Below, piece by piece: positions 5,582 to 13,953 of a stretch of 25,615 nucleotides of DNA. A model generated the notes under the pieces. That model was not told where the DNA came from. It did not search any database and saw only the letters and a program-made list of their open reading frames with translations. The stretch lies in UHGV virus genome UHGV-0137099. One strand, given 5' to 3'. The stretch's first letter is position 1; each line of letters opens with the position of its first letter. The DNA comes from a virus. Made by a program: the position numbers and the translations under genes.

Positions 5582-5968
5582 TTATTTTTGTTTGCGGGCT
5601 TGCAGTAACTCTTCAAATAAACGATTGAAACCGTCTACTTTTTCGCGAAGTTCCGTTAAATGCCGCTCTTTTTCAGATTCAGGGAGTGACGAAAAGAGTT
5701 TTAAAAGCTCTGTTTCTCGTTCATCTAACGGCGGCGGGGTGTCTACCGGGGTTCCCGGAGTGGCGGCTTCATCGCCGTAAAGTATCCAGGTAGGGCTGCA
5801 TTGAAGTGCGTTACTTAAAGCGAATAGGTTTTTCCCGCCAGGCTCACTATCACCGGTCTCCCACTGGGAGATAGTGACGTGCGCGACGTTAACCAGCTTC
5901 GCTAAAGCGCGCTGAGTAAGTTTGAGATCTTTTCTACGCGCTCTGATGCGCTCACCTGGCATTGTCAT
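5582..5968 (-). CDS. Phage repressor, short XRE-family HTH protein without a LexA-like peptidase domain
   Basis: 128 aa; N-terminal HTH (LKLTQRALAKLVNVAHVTISQWETG); divergent from a Cro-like gene; no SD upstream of the ATG, so possibly leaderless like lambda cI from pRM. Confidence 0.8.
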   Translation of the reverse strand: MTMPGERIRARRKDLKLTQRALAKLVNVAHVTISQWETGDSEPGGKNLFALSNALQCSPTWILYGDEAATPGTPVDTPPPLDERETELLKLFSSLPESEKERHLTELREKVDGFNRLFEELLQARKQK

Positions 5969-5970
5969 AG

Positions 5971-6025
5971 TTAGATAATTCTAAATTTCCTTGACTTCGT
6001 TATCTCGAACACCTAATTTGTTAGG
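5971..6025. promoter_or_regulatory. Immunity-region operators and a rightward sigma70-like promoter (pR-like)
   Basis: Palindromes TTAGATAATTCTAA (5971-5984) and CCTAATTTGTTAGG (6012-6025); -35 TTGACT (5991-5996), 17-bp spacer, -10 TAATTT (6014-6019); SD CAGGAGGG before the cro-like ATG at 6049. Confidence 0.55.
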
Positions 6026-6048
6026 AAAATCTAACAGGAGGGTGTTTC

Positions 6049-6243
6049 ATGTTAACAACTGATGCGATCAAATATTTTGGTAGTAAGAGAAAACTGGCTG
6101 AGGCCGCTGGCGTTAAGGCTCCTACTGTCTATGCGTGGGGGCGTTTGGTTCCTGAAGGTAAAGCGGCTCGTTTGTCTCTGATGACTGATGGCGAACTTGT
6201 TTATGACCCAAAGGCTTACCAACTGCCAGCCAAATCAGCTTAA
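6049..6243 (+). CDS. cro: Cro-like repressor (P22 Cro family)
   Basis: 64 aa; IKYFGSKRKLAEAAGVKAPTVYAWGRLVPEGKAARLSLMTDGELVY parallels P22 Cro IDHFGTQRAVAKALGISDAAVSQWKEVIPEKDAYRLEIVTAGALKY (recalled from memory); divergent from the repressor. Confidence 0.8.
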   Translation: MLTTDAIKYFGSKRKLAEAAGVKAPTVYAWGRLVPEGKAARLSLMTDGELVYDPKAYQLPAKSA

Positions 6244-6305
6244 CAATTGGCGGCATCGAAATCTGATTACGCTTAATCAATTTTCAGCGACAGGAGACGC
6301 TCGAA

Positions 6306-6752
6306 GTGGAATACCTCGAAGAACTTAAACGAGAGATCTTTAACTGGGCAGCGGAAAGCGGGCAGGAGCTGGTTGCTATCGAGATAAGCCGCATGTGGTT
6401 TCGTCTTGGTGGTAATACCGGTTCGCTGAAGCTGCACCAGATCGAAGATGCAGATGGAAACGCCGACTGGCGGGCAATCAACAACAACCGCCAACAAATT
6501 TTTCGTTGGTTGAGAGGCGAGACCAAAGCCGCGAGAGCCAAAACTCTGGCGCTGGTCAAAGCGATGGAAGCGGCGCTGCCGGCAGAGCGTTACGCTCGCT
6601 TGGGTATGTCCACCCAGTATTTAATTTGTGTGGCCATTCGTGAGTTTGCCGCGGCGATTATCGCGTTGTTACTCGACGCCAGAGACGGGCCGCAGCAAGT
6701 CGCCAGAGCATTGCAAGCTATGCGAGAAACACAGCGCCTGACCAGCGTTTAA
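6306..6752 (+). CDS. Early regulatory protein, possibly CII-like / YdaT-family
   Basis: 148 aa with GTG start and AGGAG SD; sits where cII lies in lambdoid phages (right after cro). Family call is tentative. Confidence 0.45.
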   Translation: MEYLEELKREIFNWAAESGQELVAIEISRMWFRLGGNTGSLKLHQIEDADGNADWRAINNNRQQIFRWLRGETKAARAKTLALVKAMEAALPAERYARLGMSTQYLICVAIREFAAAIIALLLDARDGPQQVARALQAMRETQRLTSV

Positions 6753-6772
6753 CCTGTACCGAGGAAAGACCA

Positions 6773-6994
6773 ATGAGAACACAAGACCGCATCACCTGGC
6801 GGAACGGGTTTCGCCGGAACGGGGTACAAGTCCCGATAGAAGATATCGAATCGATTTTCGAGGAACGTCGCGCTACTGCGCTGACAATCTGGGAACGCTA
6901 TGAACTGCGTAAGGCAGACCTACAGGAAGCGGGACTCACCCAGAAAGAATACGAAATCGCCTGCCGCCAGCTGGCTGACTCGCTGGGGATTTGA
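6773..6994 (+). CDS. Hypothetical protein (73 aa)
   Basis: Start preceded by the conserved GAGGAAAGACCAATG module and an upstream GC hairpin. Confidence 0.5.
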   Translation: MRTQDRITWRNGFRRNGVQVPIEDIESIFEERRATALTIWERYELRKADLQEAGLTQKEYEIACRQLADSLGI

Positions 6995-6996
6995 CT

Positions 6997-7980
6997 ATGA
7001 GTATGACGCTTATGGCCAAAGCAATGGCAATCAAGACCGGAAACCCGATTCGAAAACTGGTGCTGATCAAACTGGCTGATAACGCCAATGATTACGGCGA
7101 ATGCTGGCCGTCTTACAAACATATTGCGGATCACTGCGAGTGCAGCAAAAGCGCGGTGCGTGACCATATCGATGCGTTAATTTCTATGGGCCTGCTGGTG
7201 AAAGAAAATCGCCCGGGCGTAAAAAACGGGAAGGGTAACGCGTCGAATTTGTACTGTATGAAACTTGATAACCCTATGCCGCCAAAAAGCATAGCCCCTA
7301 TGCCGTCAGAAAGCACAGGTATGCCGCCAAAAAGCATAGCCCCTATGCCGTGTGGCGGCACCAGAACCAGTCACTCTTTTGAACCAGTCATAGAACCTAA
7401 AGATCCCCCTAACCCCCAGACGGGGGAAGGCGATGAAAAAATTAATTCTGATGCTAAAAAAGCGCTGGATTTTTACAACGAGCAAACCGGTACCCGCTGC
7501 CGTGACCTGAAACCTTTTGTGATGATGCTGACGCCGACCACCACCCGGGAAGGTTACACCCTGGACGAATTGCAGTTAGTTATCCGCTGGGTGCTGGCCA
7601 CATGGCGCCGCCGTGGCGATAGCCTGCCGAAGCCAGCGAACATCTGCCGGGTAAACCGCTTTGATGGTTATCTTGCTGACGCTGAAGCATGGGCGGTGAC
7701 AGAAACCGATATTGATCCGGAAGCCGTTATGAACGGCTACAACGAAATTTTTGCTGACGTTCTGCCTGCTGCTGAACTGGACACCGACCGCCGCCGGATG
7801 ATCACCCGACTTGCCGCCCACATGAAAAACAAAACCACGGGCGCATTTCTGGGTTATTTCGAAAAATTCCGCGCTGACGCCTCCGATTTTTACTTTGGTG
7901 AAAATGGCGGATGGCGCGCCAGCTTTGACTATCTGATGAAACCAGAGACATTGCGTAAGACCAGGGAGGGCGCTTTATGA
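6997..7980 (+). CDS. Replication initiation protein (lambda O-like role), N-terminal winged-helix DNA-binding domain
   Basis: N-terminus IRKLVLIKLADNANDYGECWPSYKHIADHCECSKSAVRDHIDALISMGLLV looks like an HTH replication-initiator domain; contains internal iteron-like DNA repeats; directly followed by a DnaB-like helicase with ATGA overlap. Start could be TTG 6991, ATG 6997 or ATG 7003. Confidence 0.7.
   Translation: MSMTLMAKAMAIKTGNPIRKLVLIKLADNANDYGECWPSYKHIADHCECSKSAVRDHIDALISMGLLVKENRPGVKNGKGNASNLYCMKLDNPMPPKSIAPMPSESTGMPPKSIAPMPCGGTRTSHSFEPVIEPKDPPNPQTGEGDEKINSDAKKALDFYNEQTGTRCRDLKPFVMMLTPTTTREGYTLDELQLVIRWVLATWRRRGDSLPKPANICRVNRFDGYLADAEAWAVTETDIDPEAVMNGYNEIFADVLPAAELDTDRRRMITRLAAHMKNKTTGAFLGYFEKFRADASDFYFGENGGWRASFDYLMKPETLRKTREGAL
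7272..7350 (+). repeat. Iteron-like repeats inside the initiator gene (candidate origin of replication)
   Basis: 30-bp unit ATGCCGCCAAAAAGCATAGCCCCTATGCCG occurs twice (7276-7305, 7321-7350), built from alternating CTATGC / GCATAG half-sites; followed by an AT-rich stretch around 7430-7480. Confidence 0.55.
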
Positions 7981-9383
7981 TGCAGATGATGTATTCCACT
8001 CAGGAACTGGAATGTCTGGTTCTTGGCTGCCTGATGAACGGTGGCGCCACGCCAGACGCCTTTGATGTGATTGCCAGCACTCCGAGCGAAGCTTTCAGCG
8101 TCGCATACTACAGGCAGATTTACGGTGTGATCAAAGCGCAGGCCTTGAGCGGCGGCTTAATTGACATGATGTACATTAGCGAAGCCATTGGCGGACAGGG
8201 GACGCTGGCCAATCTCGCCGATATTTGCAAATTCCCGACATCGATCGTCAATCTCAAAGGCTACGCCAAAAAAATGGTTAAGGCCTGGCGAAGCAGAACC
8301 ATCGCGCAATTACTCCAGGATGGTGCGGATGGTATTCGTGATGCGATAAACCAGGAACAGCGCGATCAGGTTGTCGAAACTGCCGTTGCGCAGCTGCTGG
8401 ACATGACCGGCGACACTGGCGACGTGCAGCCGGTACATATCAGCGAATTATTGCCGGTGTACATGGAAACCATTCAGAAGCGCATGGACGGTGAAGAGGG
8501 TACCCGCAACCTGAAAACCGGGATCGACGAGCTGGATGAAGTCACTGGAGGTTTTAACCCACAGGATTTGATTGTTGTCGGTGCACGCCCGGGTATGGGA
8601 AAAACCGAGCTTGCGCTGAAGATTGTCGATGGTGTTACCGCTGCCGGCGGTGGAGTGTTGATATTCAGCATGGAAATGGCCGCTGCGCAAATCTTAGAAC
8701 GCTCTCTGGCGGGTTCTGGCAACATGTCAGTGTCACGCCTGCGTAATCCCCTCGATATGCAGGACGAGGACTGGGCGCGCTTTACAGCGGCCATGGAGAC
8801 CATGAACGGGCGCGATATCTGGATCGTTGATGCTACCGATCTGACGATTGAGCAAATCCGCGCCGTTGCCGAAACGCATAAGCGCCGGTATCCGCATCTG
8901 GCGATGATCGTTGTCGATTACCTTGGCCTGATTAAAAAACCGAAGGCAGAGCGTAACGACCTCGCGATCGCCCACATATCCCGAAACCTTAAAACTATGG
9001 CTATGCGCCTGCATACGCCGACTTTCGCGCTTAGCCAGCTTTCCCGCGCTGTGGATTCCCGCCCAGCGGCCCAGCGCCGCCCGGTCATGTCAGATCTGCG
9101 CGATTCAGGTTCTATTGAGCAGGACGCCGACAGCATCATGTTTCTGTATCGCGATGAGGTTTACAACCCGGAAAGCCCGGCGGCTGGCGTCGCTGAAATT
9201 ATCCTGGGTAAAAGCCGCTTCAGCGCCGCAGGCGCAATTATTTATCAGGAATTTAAAAACGGACACTTTCTGTCTATGGATCAGCATGTTGGCAAAGAGA
9301 AAACACGTATCCAACTGGAGGCCGCGAAACCCCGGAAACAACCCCGTAAATACTCTGAGAAATTCAATACCGATGCATTTTAA
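7977..9383 (+). CDS. Replicative DNA helicase, DnaB family
   Basis: 468 aa; Walker A GARPGMGKT, Walker B-like IVVDYLGL, helicase C-terminal motifs (SQLSRAVDSR, SDLRDSGSIEQDAD). Confidence 0.93.
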   Translation: MMQMMYSTQELECLVLGCLMNGGATPDAFDVIASTPSEAFSVAYYRQIYGVIKAQALSGGLIDMMYISEAIGGQGTLANLADICKFPTSIVNLKGYAKKMVKAWRSRTIAQLLQDGADGIRDAINQEQRDQVVETAVAQLLDMTGDTGDVQPVHISELLPVYMETIQKRMDGEEGTRNLKTGIDELDEVTGGFNPQDLIVVGARPGMGKTELALKIVDGVTAAGGGVLIFSMEMAAAQILERSLAGSGNMSVSRLRNPLDMQDEDWARFTAAMETMNGRDIWIVDATDLTIEQIRAVAETHKRRYPHLAMIVVDYLGLIKKPKAERNDLAIAHISRNLKTMAMRLHTPTFALSQLSRAVDSRPAAQRRPVMSDLRDSGSIEQDADSIMFLYRDEVYNPESPAAGVAEIILGKSRFSAAGAIIYQEFKNGHFLSMDQHVGKEKTRIQLEAAKPRKQPRKYSEKFNTDAF

Positions 9384-9421: not shown

Positions 9422-10090
9422 ATGACCACGAATTTAAATTACCCAAAACCAGTAAAACCGGATGATGGCTGCAACTGGCTCCCCGTTATTCTCTGGCGCA
9501 TGAACGCCGGCGCGCGCGCCCGTAGCCGTTCCGTGTTCGTTGCGGCGCCACGTCCGGCACCTGTACCCGGCATCACCCCGCAAAAACCGATTAAACGTGA
9601 AATTATCGCCCCTACGGTTTCCGGTCGCAGGCGAAAAACCCACATCGGCACTGTGATTTATTCCAGAGGTGAAAAAAACGTTCGCCTGAGTGAAGGTGCT
9701 ACCGTCTGGTCTGCTGGCTCTAATGAGCATTTCGATAAAAAAACGGGCCGGCGCGTTGGCAGTATTGGCCGTCACCGTCTGGTGCTTGAGAGTATTCGCC
9801 CATTGCGGGCCAGCGACGAACAGCAGGACGCCGGGAGCATCACCGCGCAGCAACTGGTATCCGTGATGAAAGGCAAAACGCTTTCTTACCAGGGCATTCT
9901 AGCATTAATCCAGAAGCACTACCCAGATTGTCAGGTGACGATTAAAGAACTTCACGATCGCGTGTTCGGCATGTTCATGTCGAATTACGTGGGTATCACC
10001 CGTCACGACGATATGCCGGTGGTTCACTTCACGCTTAACAGCGTCGATCCCCGTTATTACATCGAGTCAGCGAAGAACAAGAGGGCATAA
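9422..10090 (+). CDS. Hypothetical protein (222 aa, basic N-terminal half)
   Basis: ORF preceded by GC hairpin CGCGCCTGACCAGCGCG and AGGAAAGACCAATG; no recognisable motif. Confidence 0.55.
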   Translation: MTTNLNYPKPVKPDDGCNWLPVILWRMNAGARARSRSVFVAAPRPAPVPGITPQKPIKREIIAPTVSGRRRKTHIGTVIYSRGEKNVRLSEGATVWSAGSNEHFDKKTGRRVGSIGRHRLVLESIRPLRASDEQQDAGSITAQQLVSVMKGKTLSYQGILALIQKHYPDCQVTIKELHDRVFGMFMSNYVGITRHDDMPVVHFTLNSVDPRYYIESAKNKRA

Positions 10091-10093
10091 GGC

Positions 10094-10327
10094 ATGGCCG
10101 GGCAATCAGATTACTTGCCGCCCGGCTTACCGCTCAATCGCGCCAAATGGCCGCAGGAGTGCCAGATCAAAGAGCACTACGACATGCGCGCCTCGGCACT
10201 CATACGCCAGCTGTTCGAGAAGAAAGTTACTCGACAGGCCATCGTAGAACAGATTGCAGCGACGCCGGAAAGCTACCGGGAGTTTTTCAAAGAGAGATTG
10301 AATTTTTGGCGGGAGAAGCGGACATGA
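10094..10327 (+). CDS. Hypothetical protein (77 aa)
   Basis: Tightly packed ORF 4 nt after the previous stop. Confidence 0.45.
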   Translation: MAGQSDYLPPGLPLNRAKWPQECQIKEHYDMRASALIRQLFEKKVTRQAIVEQIAATPESYREFFKERLNFWREKRT

Positions 10328-10494
10328 AATTTTCAACACCTGATTTTATGCATTGCAGCCGCAGGACGCTGATGCTGTTCGTACTCAGTGCAAATGTTGT
10401 TGGCTGGATAGTCATTATCGCTCTTATTTGGGCTGGATGTGAGGTTGTGCAGTGGGCGCTGGAATATCTCCGCAGTAGTGGGGTGCTGGCGTGA
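10324..10494 (+). CDS. Small predicted membrane protein (56 aa)
   Basis: ATG overlaps the upstream stop (ATGA); hydrophobic core LMLFVLSANVVGWIVIIALIWAG; its stop overlaps the next start (GTGA). The track's longer start at 10147 would overlap the upstream gene. Confidence 0.4.
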   Translation: MKFSTPDFMHCSRRTLMLFVLSANVVGWIVIIALIWAGCEVVQWALEYLRSSGVLA

Positions 10495-11081
10495 ATAACA
10501 AATACACCTTGATTTATGCGGATCCGCCCTGGACGTACCGCGATAAAGCCAAAGATGGCGAGCGTGGCGCCGGGCATAAATACCAGACCATGACTGTGCT
10601 CGATATCTGCCGTCTCCCGGTCTGGGAACTGGCCGCTGAAAACTGCCTGCTGGCTATGTGGTGGGTGCCGACTCAGCCGCTGGAGGCGTTGCGAGTAGTC
10701 GAGGCGTGGGGCTTCCGTCTGATGACCATGAAAGGCTTTACGTGGAACAAATGCTACAGCCGGCAGACCGACAAACTGGCCCTCGGAATGGGCCATATGA
10801 CCAGAGCGAACAGCGAGGATTGCCTTTTCGCTGTGCAGGGGAAATTACCCGCCCGGCTGGATGCCGGGATCGTTCAGTCATTCGTGGCCCCGCGTCTGGA
10901 GCATTCGCGCAAACCGGATATCGTGCGCGAAAAGCTGGTGCAGCTGCTGGGCGATGTACCGCGTATTGAGTTATTCGCCCGCCTGTCGTCGCATGGTTTC
11001 GACGTGTGGGGTAATCAGTGTGAATCGCCAGCGGTGACGCTGCTGCCGGGCATTGCAGAATATATCGGGGAGGTAGCATAG
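10491..11081 (+). CDS. MT-A70-family N6-adenine DNA methyltransferase
   Basis: 196 aa; catalytic DPPW motif (LIYADPPWTY) and downstream conserved blocks typical of the MT-A70 family; GTG start. Confidence 0.8.
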   Translation: MNNKYTLIYADPPWTYRDKAKDGERGAGHKYQTMTVLDICRLPVWELAAENCLLAMWWVPTQPLEALRVVEAWGFRLMTMKGFTWNKCYSRQTDKLALGMGHMTRANSEDCLFAVQGKLPARLDAGIVQSFVAPRLEHSRKPDIVREKLVQLLGDVPRIELFARLSSHGFDVWGNQCESPAVTLLPGIAEYIGEVA

Positions 11082-11264
11082 ATGGCAGATTTTAGCGCAA
11101 CCAAAAGAACCGCGTCGCTCGAAGATTGGGGCGACGCGCTGGAATTAATCGTCGAATTAAATGGTAAATCATTCGATATCACAGAAATGGAGATTGAAGC
11201 CGCTTACGAGGCATATAAGCGAGTTGATGATTTTTTTTATGACGAATGGGGTGATGATCAATGA
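11082..11264 (+). CDS. Small very acidic protein (60 aa; 17 Asp/Glu against 5 Lys/Arg)
   Basis: ORF exactly filling the gap between the two methyltransferase genes; composition counted from the translation. Confidence 0.5.
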   Translation: MADFSATKRTASLEDWGDALELIVELNGKSFDITEMEIEAAYEAYKRVDDFFYDEWGDDQ

Positions 11265-12094
11265 TTGAAAAAAAAATCAGGCATCCTGTAATCAGATATC
11301 ACGGCGGGAAATTCCGACTGGCACACTGGATTATCGAGCAGATGCCGGACCACGTCTGCTATGTCGAACCGTTCGGCGGCGCTGCTGGCGTATTGCTTCA
11401 AAAATCGCGTAGCTATTCAGAGGTGTACAACGATCTCGACGGCGAGGTGGTGAACCTGTTTCGTGTGTTGCGCGACCCTGAATTAAACCAGCGCCTGCAG
11501 GATGCCTGTTGCCTGACCCCGTATTCACGCGATGAGTTCTGTCACGCTCAGCAACCAGCCACTAACCCTATCGAACGCGCCCGCCGTATGGTGGTTCGTG
11601 CCTGTATGGGGTTCGGCTCTGCCGCAGGTATCGGCGGTCAATCCGGCTTCCGCAGCGACAGCAAACGCAAATACGCTACGGCGGCGCATCTATGGGAGCG
11701 TTACCCGGCTAATCTCGCTGTTGTCTGTCAGCGCCTTCAAGGAGTCATCATCGAGAACAAAGACGCTCTGGCGGTAATGCGCGCCCACGACGCAGAAACG
11801 ACGCTGCATTACATCGATCCGCCATATATGCCGGAAACACGAGTGCAGAAAAATCGTTATTACAACCATGAAATGACCGTTGAAGGGCATGAGCAATTGC
11901 TCGCTGTGTCCAGAACGATGAAAGGCATGGTGATGATTAGCGGTTACGACACTGATGTCTACAACGACATGCTATCCGGCTGGGCGAAGACCGAGAAAGC
12001 ATCGCGCATCAGTGCCGGTCGCGGTATGAAAGTCCGTACTGAATGCCTCTGGCTTAACCCTGCAGCACAACAGAAACAGGAGCGTGCAGCATGA
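11261..12094 (+). CDS. Dam-like (D12 class) N6-adenine DNA methyltransferase
   Basis: 277 aa; SAM-binding motif EPFGGAAGV and catalytic DPPY (HYIDPPYM). Confidence 0.88.
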   Translation: MIEKKIRHPVIRYHGGKFRLAHWIIEQMPDHVCYVEPFGGAAGVLLQKSRSYSEVYNDLDGEVVNLFRVLRDPELNQRLQDACCLTPYSRDEFCHAQQPATNPIERARRMVVRACMGFGSAAGIGGQSGFRSDSKRKYATAAHLWERYPANLAVVCQRLQGVIIENKDALAVMRAHDAETTLHYIDPPYMPETRVQKNRYYNHEMTVEGHEQLLAVSRTMKGMVMISGYDTDVYNDMLSGWAKTEKASRISAGRGMKVRTECLWLNPAAQQKQERAA

Positions 12095-12127
12095 CAAAAT
12101 GCTGTAAGTGCTGCGAGAAGGTGATTT

Positions 12128-12570: not shown

Positions 12571-12609
12571 TACTGTGAATTTATACAGTATTATTGTTGA
12601 GGAGAGGTA

Positions 12610-12801
12610 GTGGTTGATAAGAAAGACGCAGGAGACCTTCTCCCCGACAATGGTGATGTACTGATTACTTGTGAAAATGGGAAGATTAAGAAGACCAGAA
12701 TTGTCCATCCCGATGAGCACGTAGCGACACTTAACGCGTTGTTTGAATTAGCTAAATTGACTGGTTATACCATTATCAAACCAGACGGCAATATGCTATA
12801 A
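12610..12801 (+). CDS. Hypothetical small protein (63 aa) in an AT-rich moron
   Basis: GTG start after SD GGAGAGG; local GC clearly lower than its neighbours; own promoter-like sequence upstream. Confidence 0.4.
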   Translation: MVDKKDAGDLLPDNGDVLITCENGKIKKTRIVHPDEHVATLNALFELAKLTGYTIIKPDGNML

Positions 12802-12869: not shown

Positions 12870-13466
12870 ATGGCGCAGTATTCTTTTGTAAAAGCACCCG
12901 GCGGTGTATTAATTCCGGCAACGCCTGACGCCCGCGATTTTTTAGAAAAAAAAGTCCGCCTGGGCGGTATTTTGTATGCAGATTTTAAGCAGGCAAGAAA
13001 CCCGGCATTTCACCGTAAATTTTTTGCCCTCCTGAATCTTGGATTTGATTACTGGCAACCTTCCGGCGGTGCAATATTGCCAGCTGATAAAAAACTGGTT
13101 CGTGGTTATGTGCAACTGGTAGCCCACTATGCCGGGCATGCAGACACGTTGCAGGAACTGGCGGATCAGTACCTCCGCGATGAGGCAGAAAAACGCGCAG
13201 GGAATATCAGCGCTGTTAAATCGTTTGAAGCATTCCGTTCCTGGGTAACTATCGAAGCTGGTTTTTATACCGAATACCAGATGCCTGATGGCACCACCCG
13301 CAAAGAACCCAAATCCATATCGTTCGCAAAAATGGACGATGTAGAATTCTCCCAGCTGTATAAATCCGTATTAGACGTCCTCTGGAATTTTATTCTATTC
13401 CGCACCTTCCCCAATCAGCAGGCAGCGGAAAACGCAGCCTCTCAGCTTTTCAGTTATGCGGCCTGA
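12870..13466 (+). CDS. Hypothetical phage protein (198 aa)
   Basis: Long clean ORF with SD AAAGGGGA upstream; no catalytic motif recognised. Confidence 0.6.
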   Translation: MAQYSFVKAPGGVLIPATPDARDFLEKKVRLGGILYADFKQARNPAFHRKFFALLNLGFDYWQPSGGAILPADKKLVRGYVQLVAHYAGHADTLQELADQYLRDEAEKRAGNISAVKSFEAFRSWVTIEAGFYTEYQMPDGTTRKEPKSISFAKMDDVEFSQLYKSVLDVLWNFILFRTFPNQQAAENAASQLFSYAA

Positions 13467-13476
13467 GGCGGACACT

Positions 13477-13953
13477 ATGAAATTCAATATTCGCTCTCAG
13501 ATCGTCGAAATGGATGTGGCCGACGCCCTGAATTTTGTGGGTTACCCCATCCACATTGGCTCGAATGGCTATGCAAAAGTCACCGGCTGGCATTTTGGCA
13601 AGGAAAGATACCTTCATCGCGTCATCATGAATGCGGGACCTCAGGATGTTGTTGATCACATTGATGGTAATAAGCTCAACTGCTCCCGCTCAAATTTGAG
13701 GATCTGCACACAGTCAGACAATACCAAAAACGTTGGTTTGAGGAGTGACAATAGCTCGGGAATTCCGGGAGTTTACTGGGTACCCACTCGCCTCAAATGG
13801 GCGGCGCAAATTTCAGTTGATGGCAGGACTGTTAGTTTAGGCCGCTTTGATGAAATGGCCGATGCTATCGATGCCCGCCGGAAAGCAGAAGATTTGTATT
13901 ACGGGGAGTTTGCAGCCAGCAAGGGGGTGCTTTGTGAAAAAGCGCACCAGTAA
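13477..13953 (+). CDS. HNH endonuclease with C-terminal AP2 DNA-binding domain (homing-endonuclease-like)
   Basis: HNH block HRVIMNAGPQDVVDHIDGNKLNCSRSNLRICTQSDNTKN; AP2-like block GIPGVYWVPTRLKWAAQISVDGRTVSLGRFDEMADAIDARRKAEDLYYGEFA. Start set at ATG 13477, after the upstream stop. Confidence 0.8.
   Translation: MKFNIRSQIVEMDVADALNFVGYPIHIGSNGYAKVTGWHFGKERYLHRVIMNAGPQDVVDHIDGNKLNCSRSNLRICTQSDNTKNVGLRSDNSSGIPGVYWVPTRLKWAAQISVDGRTVSLGRFDEMADAIDARRKAEDLYYGEFAASKGVLCEKAHQ

Follow-up and report, generated by a model that had tools for sequence, protein, structure and literature searches.

Two orphan N6-adenine methyltransferase genes of different classes in a variable cargo region of a Klebsiella temperate podophage

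Why should a temperate phage carry two different N6-adenine methyltransferase genes next to each other, and do these genes serve one purpose together with the small acidic ORF lying between them? The question was raised by an earlier note on the 25.6-kb stretch of DNA that was analysed here as a whole (the window in the following), in which the three genes were regarded as a likely anti-defence islet. The analysis described below indicates two intact orphan enzymes from separate families, located in a stretch of exchangeable cargo and probably acting independently of each other on the phage DNA.

Genomic setting

The window, a metagenome contig (ENA ERZ1744283 NODE_208), contains the left part of an integrated Klebsiella temperate podophage. 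Its left end codes for an integrase, a Gam-like protein, a 727-aa exonuclease of the RecE type, a 128-aa HTH repressor and Cro- and CII-like proteins. The replication module consists of the genes for an O-like initiator, DnaB, a phrog_4183 protein (p4183) and a protein resembling the theta subunit of pol III, and it is succeeded by the methylase ORFs. To the right of these are found the genes of a phrog_536 protein, NinB, an HNH-AP2 protein and a homologue of a RecA-dependent nuclease, and the T7-like structural genes (portal, capsid, tail tubular proteins, internal virion proteins) occupy the right side. A close full-length relative of the region was not found by megablast against phages and E. 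coli genomes. The features needed below are the following.

35-121: tRNA-Leu gene, beside which the prophage is integrated
10324..12127, no strand assigned: hypervariable cargo region between the theta-like and the phrog_536 genes; its content varies among 47 backbone-matched IMG/VR loci
10324-10494: 56-aa membrane ORF, within the cargo region, upstream of the MT-A70 ORF
10491..11081, + strand: MT-A70 family (beta-class, DPPW) N6-adenine methyltransferase, 196 aa, GTG start (PF05063, phrog_359, PADLOC MTase_II)
10521..10532, + strand: codons of the catalytic motif IV DPPW, residues 11-14; D11, P12 and W14 are invariant in alignment A1
11082..11264, + strand: 60-aa acidic ORF, net charge about -12 (phrog_519, 4e-08)
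11261..12094, + strand: D12-class (alpha-class, FxGxG...DPPY) N6-adenine methyltransferase, 277 aa (PF02086, phrog_56)
11816..11827, + strand: codons of the catalytic motif IV DPPY, residues 186-189; D186, P187, P188 and Y189 are invariant in the 42-sequence alignment A4

From the theta-like gene through the D12 gene all junctions are touching or overlapping, and they read, in order, ATGA, GTGA, TAG-ATG and ATGA. At 10491-10494 (GTGA) the GTG start of the MT-A70 gene overlaps the upstream stop codon, at 11079-11084 (TAG-ATG) its own stop codon abuts the start of the acidic ORF, and at 11261-11264 (ATGA) the acidic ORF overlaps the D12 ORF. A consensus scan of the + strand from about 6.7 kb (the cro/cII region) to about 12.7 kb gave no promoter-like site, and the terminator-like matches in the same interval were weak ones at 9223 and 11373 only. 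Since the genes lie end to end or overlap, and apart from these weak matches no promoter- or terminator-like site intervenes, translation from a long early-right transcript, and with it co-expression of the methylases with the early-right replication genes, is suggested.

The two methylases were claimed in the earlier note to be without a cognate endonuclease. This proved correct, as no restriction-endonuclease-like gene is present in the window and no endonuclease partner was detected within +/-6 kb in the related contigs. The nucleases of the window are the RecE-like exonuclease, the HNH-AP2 homing-type gene and the RecA-dependent nuclease homologue only.

The MT-A70 enzyme

Two different adenine methyltransferases had been proposed here; both ORFs are present on the + strand at the stated coordinates, and both were recovered in the Pfam searches by full-length or above-cut-off matches. 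In case of the MT-A70 ORF the PF05063 model is covered from end to end (1-172 of 172; 82.9 bits, cut-off 23.9, E 3e-23), and the ORF matches phrog_359 at 8.6e-112 and PADLOC MTase_II at 7e-77. In the alignment of its relatives the protein has every family-invariant residue, including H138, S139, K141, P142, PRIELF (157-162) and R164 in the C-terminal part of A1, while A163 varies in two rows. The possibility that the DPPW and DPPY motifs are degenerate, which the earlier note had raised, did not materialize: both are intact, and the motif residues are invariant across the alignments of the relatives. In the lysogen L001 (GCA_051083925.1) a single G-to-T change turns Glu65 into a stop codon, thus the MT-A70 gene is dispensable for the prophage state.

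The closest characterized relative is gp5 of the Stx2a-converting phages (phiPA8, P13374; M.EcoGV / M.EcoPA8orf6770P), to which the window enzyme is 77% identical over 192 residues (E 4e-122). Both belong to the MT-A70 family, have an N-terminal DPPW and about 200 residues, and are prophage-borne orphans. They differ in their surroundings, since the gp5 gene is found near the integrase at the left end, preceded by the gene of its partner PNB-2, whereas the window gene stands after the replication module. They differ also in length (208 aa against 196 aa): the sequences diverge past about residue 192, and the window enzyme is without the C-terminal tail of the Stx form, a tail that is said to accompany PNB-2 binding. 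No homologue of PNB-2 (gp6, phrog_1680) is encoded in the window as judged by tblastn, and the genes located where PNB-2 would adjoin are those of the theta-like protein and of the 56-aa membrane ORF. Short MT-A70 forms are reported to occur without PNB-2 (PMC10810198). Together with its upstream partner PNB-2, the Stx-phage gp5 is reported to prefer 16S rRNA and to methylate DNA only weakly in vitro (PMC10810198). A statement in the same paper, which cites Fang 2012, has M.EcoGV, the O104:H4 counterpart of gp5, methylating GATC in vivo when overproduced.

A second group of relatives is formed by Serratia phage BZS1 p32, HK639 gp35 and M.EfaBMDam of Tn1549, which share the family and the motif order with the window MT-A70 and the status of a temperate-phage orphan. 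HK639 gp35 is 48% identical to the window enzyme and carries, after the TWxK segment, a 25-residue insertion that the latter does not have. When p32 of BZS1, 75% identical to HK639 gp35, was cloned alone, the DNA became MboI-resistant and DpnI-sensitive, that is, the enzyme was GATC-specific (PMC7556043), and for the group as a whole a Dam-like target was obtained experimentally (PMC7556043). Here too the gene position is different, the BZS1/HK639-type methylase genes being downstream of the integrase and the window gene after the replication module. HK639 encodes a PNB-2 homologue two genes upstream of its methylase; thus, in that clade, a PNB-2-like neighbour accompanies a methylase that is able to methylate GATC alone, as BZS1 p32 does.

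Because of the 77% identity to the M.EcoGV enzyme and of the related BZS1/HK639 clade, GATC in DNA is the most likely target of the window MT-A70. GATC is not avoided in the window, as 99 sites are present (about 1 per 259 bp). Klebsiella is dam+, and the enzyme probably only duplicates the GATC mark of the host Dam. GATC restriction systems are not known to be frequent in Klebsiella, and the enzyme may thus be selected for a reason other than protection.

The D12 enzyme

The second ORF matches PF02086 with 76 bits (cut-off 22, E 5e-21) and phrog_56 at 9e-71. EPFGGAAG is found at residues 36-43, ahead of DPPY, and in the 42-sequence alignment G40 is invariant and G39 near-invariant. This enzyme had been called Dam-like in the earlier note. 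The term holds at the level of the family (PF02086) and fails for the Dam subfamily, as the score against the Dam subfamily model TIGR00571 was 65 bits, below the cut-off of 114.85, and that against the Dam equivalog NF008152 was 37.2 bits, with a cut-off of 441. Thus, judged by these models, the protein is not a Dam orthologue and is Dam-like in fold and class only. The relatives of solved structure are E. coli Dam, T4 Dam and DpnM (profile E 4e-17 to 6e-10), which have in common with it the D12 class, the N-terminal FxGxG and the C-terminal DPPY; E. coli Dam and DpnM are the best of them, with modest E-values.

In E. coli Dam the hairpin residues L122, R124 and P134 read GATC, as seen in the EcoDam-DNA structure. 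The positions aligned to them are not conserved in the D12 subfamily, the alignment of this loop being of low confidence. The flanks of the region equivalent to the hairpin are conserved in the 42 sequences (MGFGS ... TGFR), and the loop itself varies both in sequence and in length. G129 and R131 of the TGFR consensus are near-invariant, and the Phe is conserved, yet stays under the 90% threshold. The subfamily is large (2,059 representative clusters at E<=1e-30) and occurs in phages of many phyla with 40-57% identity. A published target assignment for it was not found in the literature searched. The target of the D12 enzyme would probably be a non-GATC or a relaxed sequence.

A divergent recognition region can leave a Dam-related enzyme with practically no specificity, as was described for Hia5 and Hin1523 of Mu-like prophages, which are silent in lysogens (PMC3299994). 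They resemble the window D12 in being Dam-related alpha-class proteins of about 280 aa with a divergent target-recognition region, and in being prophage orphans. Hia5, however, finds bona fide methylases only in iterated searches, whereas the window D12 matches Dam directly; on the description of Hia5, the two therefore probably belong to different subfamilies. The membership of D12 in the non-specific family of OS31 p25 / phiP27 NP_543076 was also considered and rejected, since that enzyme is a PF01555 protein and unrelated. An A9 tract near the 5' end of the D12 coding sequence (11268-11276) was examined as a candidate for phase variation and was discarded, having the same length in the five related contigs compared (L001-L003, L005 and L006); the tract is missing from relatives.

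The acidic ORF

The ORF between the two methylases contains 17 D/E residues against 5 K/R. Its homologues (86 clusters, 46-61 aa, most of them 57-61) are confined to Enterobacteriaceae prophages and are all annotated as hypothetical. The AF2 model is a three-helix bundle (pLDDT 81), for which the fold searches returned nothing significant (best PDB E 2.8, best BFVD E 0.58), and no match was obtained in Pfam, NCBIfam or the defence library of PADLOC. A DNA mimic of the Ocr/ArdA type would be expected to show both charge and a mimic fold or family match; the acidic protein has the charge and neither of the latter, so nothing beyond its charge speaks for an anti-defence role. Since phrog_519 has the length of PNB-2, 143, the ORF was tried as a short PNB-2 homologue as well; this was rejected, as the two do not align and PNB-2 belongs to phrog_1680.

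A methylase is lacking nearby in 16 of 17 IMG/VR loci with the acidic protein, and other small accessory genes surround it there. The acidic ORF is an independently mobile small accessory gene.

A slot with exchangeable contents

In order to see what related phages carry at this place, two sets of IMG/VR loci were sampled, and all counts given here are of database loci, not of independent evolutionary events. The first set contained the 80 closest MT-A70 loci, of which 40 have the backbone of the window; the second contained 47 backbone-matched loci that were found through the neighbouring p4183 gene. In the slot after the MT-A70 gene (40 loci) the most frequent content was a 76-aa ORF with an HNH endonuclease (17 loci), followed by large or small C5-cytosine methylases (10 loci, four with an extra 'DPPH' orphan methylase), a reverse-strand AbiL defence pair (4 loci; AbiLi 1e-70, AbiLii 2e-12), deletion remnants (3), a membrane protein (2), and one case each of the DPPH methylase alone, a MazG-like gene and other cargo. 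The acidic ORF with D12 stood there at a single locus. Altogether a second DNA methylase was present in the slot in 12 of the 40.

The p4183-sampled set gave a similar picture. MT-A70 is the commonest occupant (34/47), a further methylase (D12, C5 or DPPH) is found in 7 and AbiL in 4. Most of the 13 loci without MT-A70 have other cargo in its place, and one of them (L228) keeps a partial copy of the gene. The acidic ORF plus D12 was again seen once. The trio of MT-A70, acidic ORF and D12 is retained in six contigs that share the identical D12 protein; L004 among them is the contig of the window itself, and L001 has the Glu65 nonsense allele of MT-A70.

The D12 gene is just as loosely attached to its neighbours. 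Its relatives (66-91% identical) occur in many other contexts with no shared neighbour, where some have another MT-A70 gene and a PNB-2-like gene in their vicinity and others a PF05869 methylase. In the distant relatives L171-L175 D12 is directly 3' of the theta-like gene, and MT-A70 is absent. A conserved cassette of a small ORF and D12 was considered and dropped, the small overlapping ORFs that precede D12 in other Klebsiella prophages being unrelated.

Thus the two methylases and the acidic protein do not form a functional unit. The coherent islet of the earlier note did not survive these comparisons: acidic ORF and D12 go together at 1 of 47 loci, 16 of 17 acidic loci are methylase-free, and the acidic protein has no known anti-defence fold. 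The locus is a hot spot of accessory cargo, and since relatives carry other DNA methylases and even AbiL there, this cargo is counted as defence-related.

Several methylase genes in one phage or prophage, beside the replication module, are a described pattern (PMC5537653, PMC4659465). As in the window, the multi-methylase phages and the lambdoid nin regions have two or three methylases, often beside replication genes (PMC5537653), and with the nin-region accessory genes the window shares a variable stretch between the replication genes and NinB. What sets it apart from them is that its order, MT-A70, acidic ORF and D12, is rare (1/47 IMG/VR loci and the six contigs with identical D12).

Possible roles of the two methylases

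In the reading that we consider probable, with some reserve, the two genes are accessory cargo and code for orphan DNA N6-adenine methyltransferases that work independently of each other and methylate the phage DNA in lytic growth for its protection. The sequence comparisons show the family membership of the two enzymes, their intact motifs, their orphan status and their mosaic surroundings; the activity, the targets, the timing and the protective role we infer along the following lines. Translation of the methylases would be confined to lytic growth and would draw on the long early-right transcript, each enzyme, using AdoMet, would flip out and methylate adenines of the replicating phage DNA, and the packaged genomes would thus leave fully modified. 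MT-A70, acting at GATC, would top up the host Dam, which is too slow for phage replication. D12 would be one of several interchangeable second methylases acquired by this phage lineage, and its gain presumably allows the phage to evade restriction-modification or BREX-type systems that are specific to the strain infected next. A broad protection against several specificities, as proposed in the earlier note, is plausible.

Instead of countering restriction, the methylases might serve the DNA transactions of the phage itself, such as replication, packaging, expression or the avoidance of MutH/SeqA. Such a role, which we regard as unlikely, has a parallel in P1 Dam and pac cleavage, and it would fit the position of the genes directly after the replication module and their coupling to it, as well as the D12 gene standing alone after the theta-like gene in L171-L175. 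Phage methylases beside replication genes have been read in this way (PMC5537653), and a GATC methylase should give little extra protection in a dam+ host. However, MT-A70 is missing from 13 of the 47 backbone-matched phages and inactivated in one lysogen, so it is not essential, and what else the slot contains (C5 methylases, AbiL, HNH genes) speaks for accessory cargo related to defence. Moreover, no GATC cluster with a repeat structure was found in the O-like gene or elsewhere. Three GATC sites with a spacing of 42 bp (12304, 12346 and 12388) were evaluated as a methylation-sensing array and rejected, there being no underlying repeat. Improbable, in our estimation, is that only D12 works on DNA and that MT-A70 is mainly an RNA methyltransferase, which would modify the 16S rRNA of 30S subunits and thereby tune both translation and the induction of the prophage. 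This has been claimed for gp5 of phiPA8, to which the identity is high over 192 residues, and some sources label relatives as 'N6-adenosine-specific RNA methylase IME4'. The reported rRNA activity, however, requires PNB-2, of which the window encodes no homologue, the window enzyme is shorter by the Stx tail, and the modified rRNA base has never been identified. In addition, M.EcoGV alone methylates GATC of DNA in vivo according to the statement cited above from PMC10810198, and so does BZS1 p32 (PMC7556043), even though HK639 of the same clade has a PNB-2 homologue nearby. A combined version is equally improbable; in this version a short, PNB-2-less MT-A70 would act in lytic growth on DNA (GATC) and on host RNA or ribosomes, D12 would represent a very large, uncharacterised phage subfamily of more than 2,000 clusters that owes a relaxed or novel specificity to its variable recognition loop, and with the two the variable region would become a modular epigenetic counter-defence cassette.

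We give still less credit to the possibility that one or both genes are inactive relics and the tandem has no functional meaning. It is common for methylases of prophages to be silent in the lysogen (PMC4659465, PMC3299994), a related contig bears the nonsense MT-A70 allele, and deletion remnants of other methylase cargo were seen in the slot (L052-L054). Silence in a lysogen, however, would be expected of lytic-phase genes and is no sign of an inactive enzyme; neither ORF is truncated, none of the invariant family residues is altered, and the same proteins appear without amino-acid change in several independent assemblies. It is highly improbable that an unrecognised nuclease forms, with the methylases, a restriction-modification system or one of a similar kind. 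The models matched in PADLOC are those of a 'Type II methyltransferase' and the HNH-AP2 gene lies 1.4 kb downstream, but the latter matches homing-endonuclease models and is absent from the otherwise identical L001 and L003, which keep both methylases. All neighbours are explained as phage genes, and the relatives of D12, scattered over many contexts, have no common neighbour.

Wider context

Orphan methylases, often several per genome, have long been known in phages, therefore the present pair carries little weight for basic biology; both proteins are already annotated in the databases, and several orphan methylases in one phage are an ordinary, well-documented arrangement. The practical value is that the range of Klebsiella strains open to infection by the phage or its relatives may be influenced by these enzymes, and that the D12 subfamily is large. 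Knowing both targets would improve the annotation of Klebsiella methylomes and help the prediction of phage host range. Identical entries exist for both proteins: HBT6233341.1, labelled 'adenine methylase [Klebsiella quasipneumoniae]', for the MT-A70 enzyme, and HBT6233343.1, labelled 'DNA adenine methylase' and from the same species, for the D12 enzyme. Hundreds of close relatives of both bear the same methylase labels, and the clusters at 90% identity comprise 614 members in case of MT-A70 and 745 in case of D12, mostly from Klebsiella and Citrobacter.

Cargo genes in the slot after MT-A70

In four of the related phages (the backbone-matched IMG/VR loci L040, L041, L044 and L045) the slot after the MT-A70 gene was occupied by an AbiL abortive-infection pair on the reverse strand, which in L040 extends over 5656-7415 (AbiLi, 1e-70; AbiLii, 2e-12). 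Since the pair fills this very slot in the four relatives, the same hot spot houses host-protective defence genes as well as phage-protective methylases. In some backbone relatives without MT-A70 a region encoding a DUF2806 protein and a protein of 391 aa whose cysteine/histidine motifs are HNH-like was seen (7027-9286 in L207, another backbone-matched locus), and these two genes may represent another two-gene defence candidate.

The MT-A70 gene of the related contig L001 (5231-5821; genome GCA_051083925.1) is the same as that of the window except for one base, G193T, which creates a stop codon at Glu65; in this lysogen the gene has been inactivated recently. In L052-L054, at about 5591-5770, a deletion scar spans two cargo genes: in a 59-aa ORF the N-terminal part stems from the DPPH methylase and the C-terminal part from the large C5 methylase.

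At the junction of the acidic ORF and the D12 methylase gene two homopolymer runs could be observed, a T8 run within the acidic ORF (11233-11240) and an A9 run directly 3' of the D12 start codon (11268-11276). The A9 run at this position is peculiar to the allele of the window, and its length did not vary among the five related contigs compared (L001-L003, L005 and L006).

Positions 10000-11066 of the window showed approx. 85% nucleotide identity to OM816834 and OM816835, recorded as Stenotrophomonas phages vB_SmeS_BUCT708 and BUCT709, and the MT-A70 protein was 91% identical to those of the two records. Such likeness between a Klebsiella prophage region and Stenotrophomonas phage records is unexpected for hosts so far apart; a problem with the host assignment may lie behind it.

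Other features of the prophage

The following features lie downstream of the methylases.

12571-12590: TACTGTGAATTTATACAGTA, a perfect CTGT-N8-ACAG LexA-box pattern
12610-12801: 63-aa ORF, phrog_340
13456-13953: HNH-AP2 gene, between NinB and the RecA-dependent-nuclease homologue

The LexA-box pattern was found once in the whole window, where 0.02 matches were expected, and the 63-aa ORF begins about 20 nt downstream of it. The repressor of the prophage, encoded on the minus strand at 5582-5968, has 128 aa and consists of an HTH only; no peptidase domain was found in it. The predicted LexA box together with the 63-aa ORF resembles a small antirepressor under LexA control, of the kind known from coliphage 186 (Tum) or Gifsy.

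The HNH-AP2 gene is missing in L001 and L003, contigs otherwise near-identical to the window; in this it resembles a homing endonuclease inserted as a free-standing gene.

Over the whole window (1-25615) the prophage, which is integrated at a tRNA-Leu, pairs a lambdoid early region (CI/Cro/CII, an O-like initiator, DnaB and NinB) with a T7-like structural module comprising portal, capsid, tail tubular A/B and internal virion proteins.
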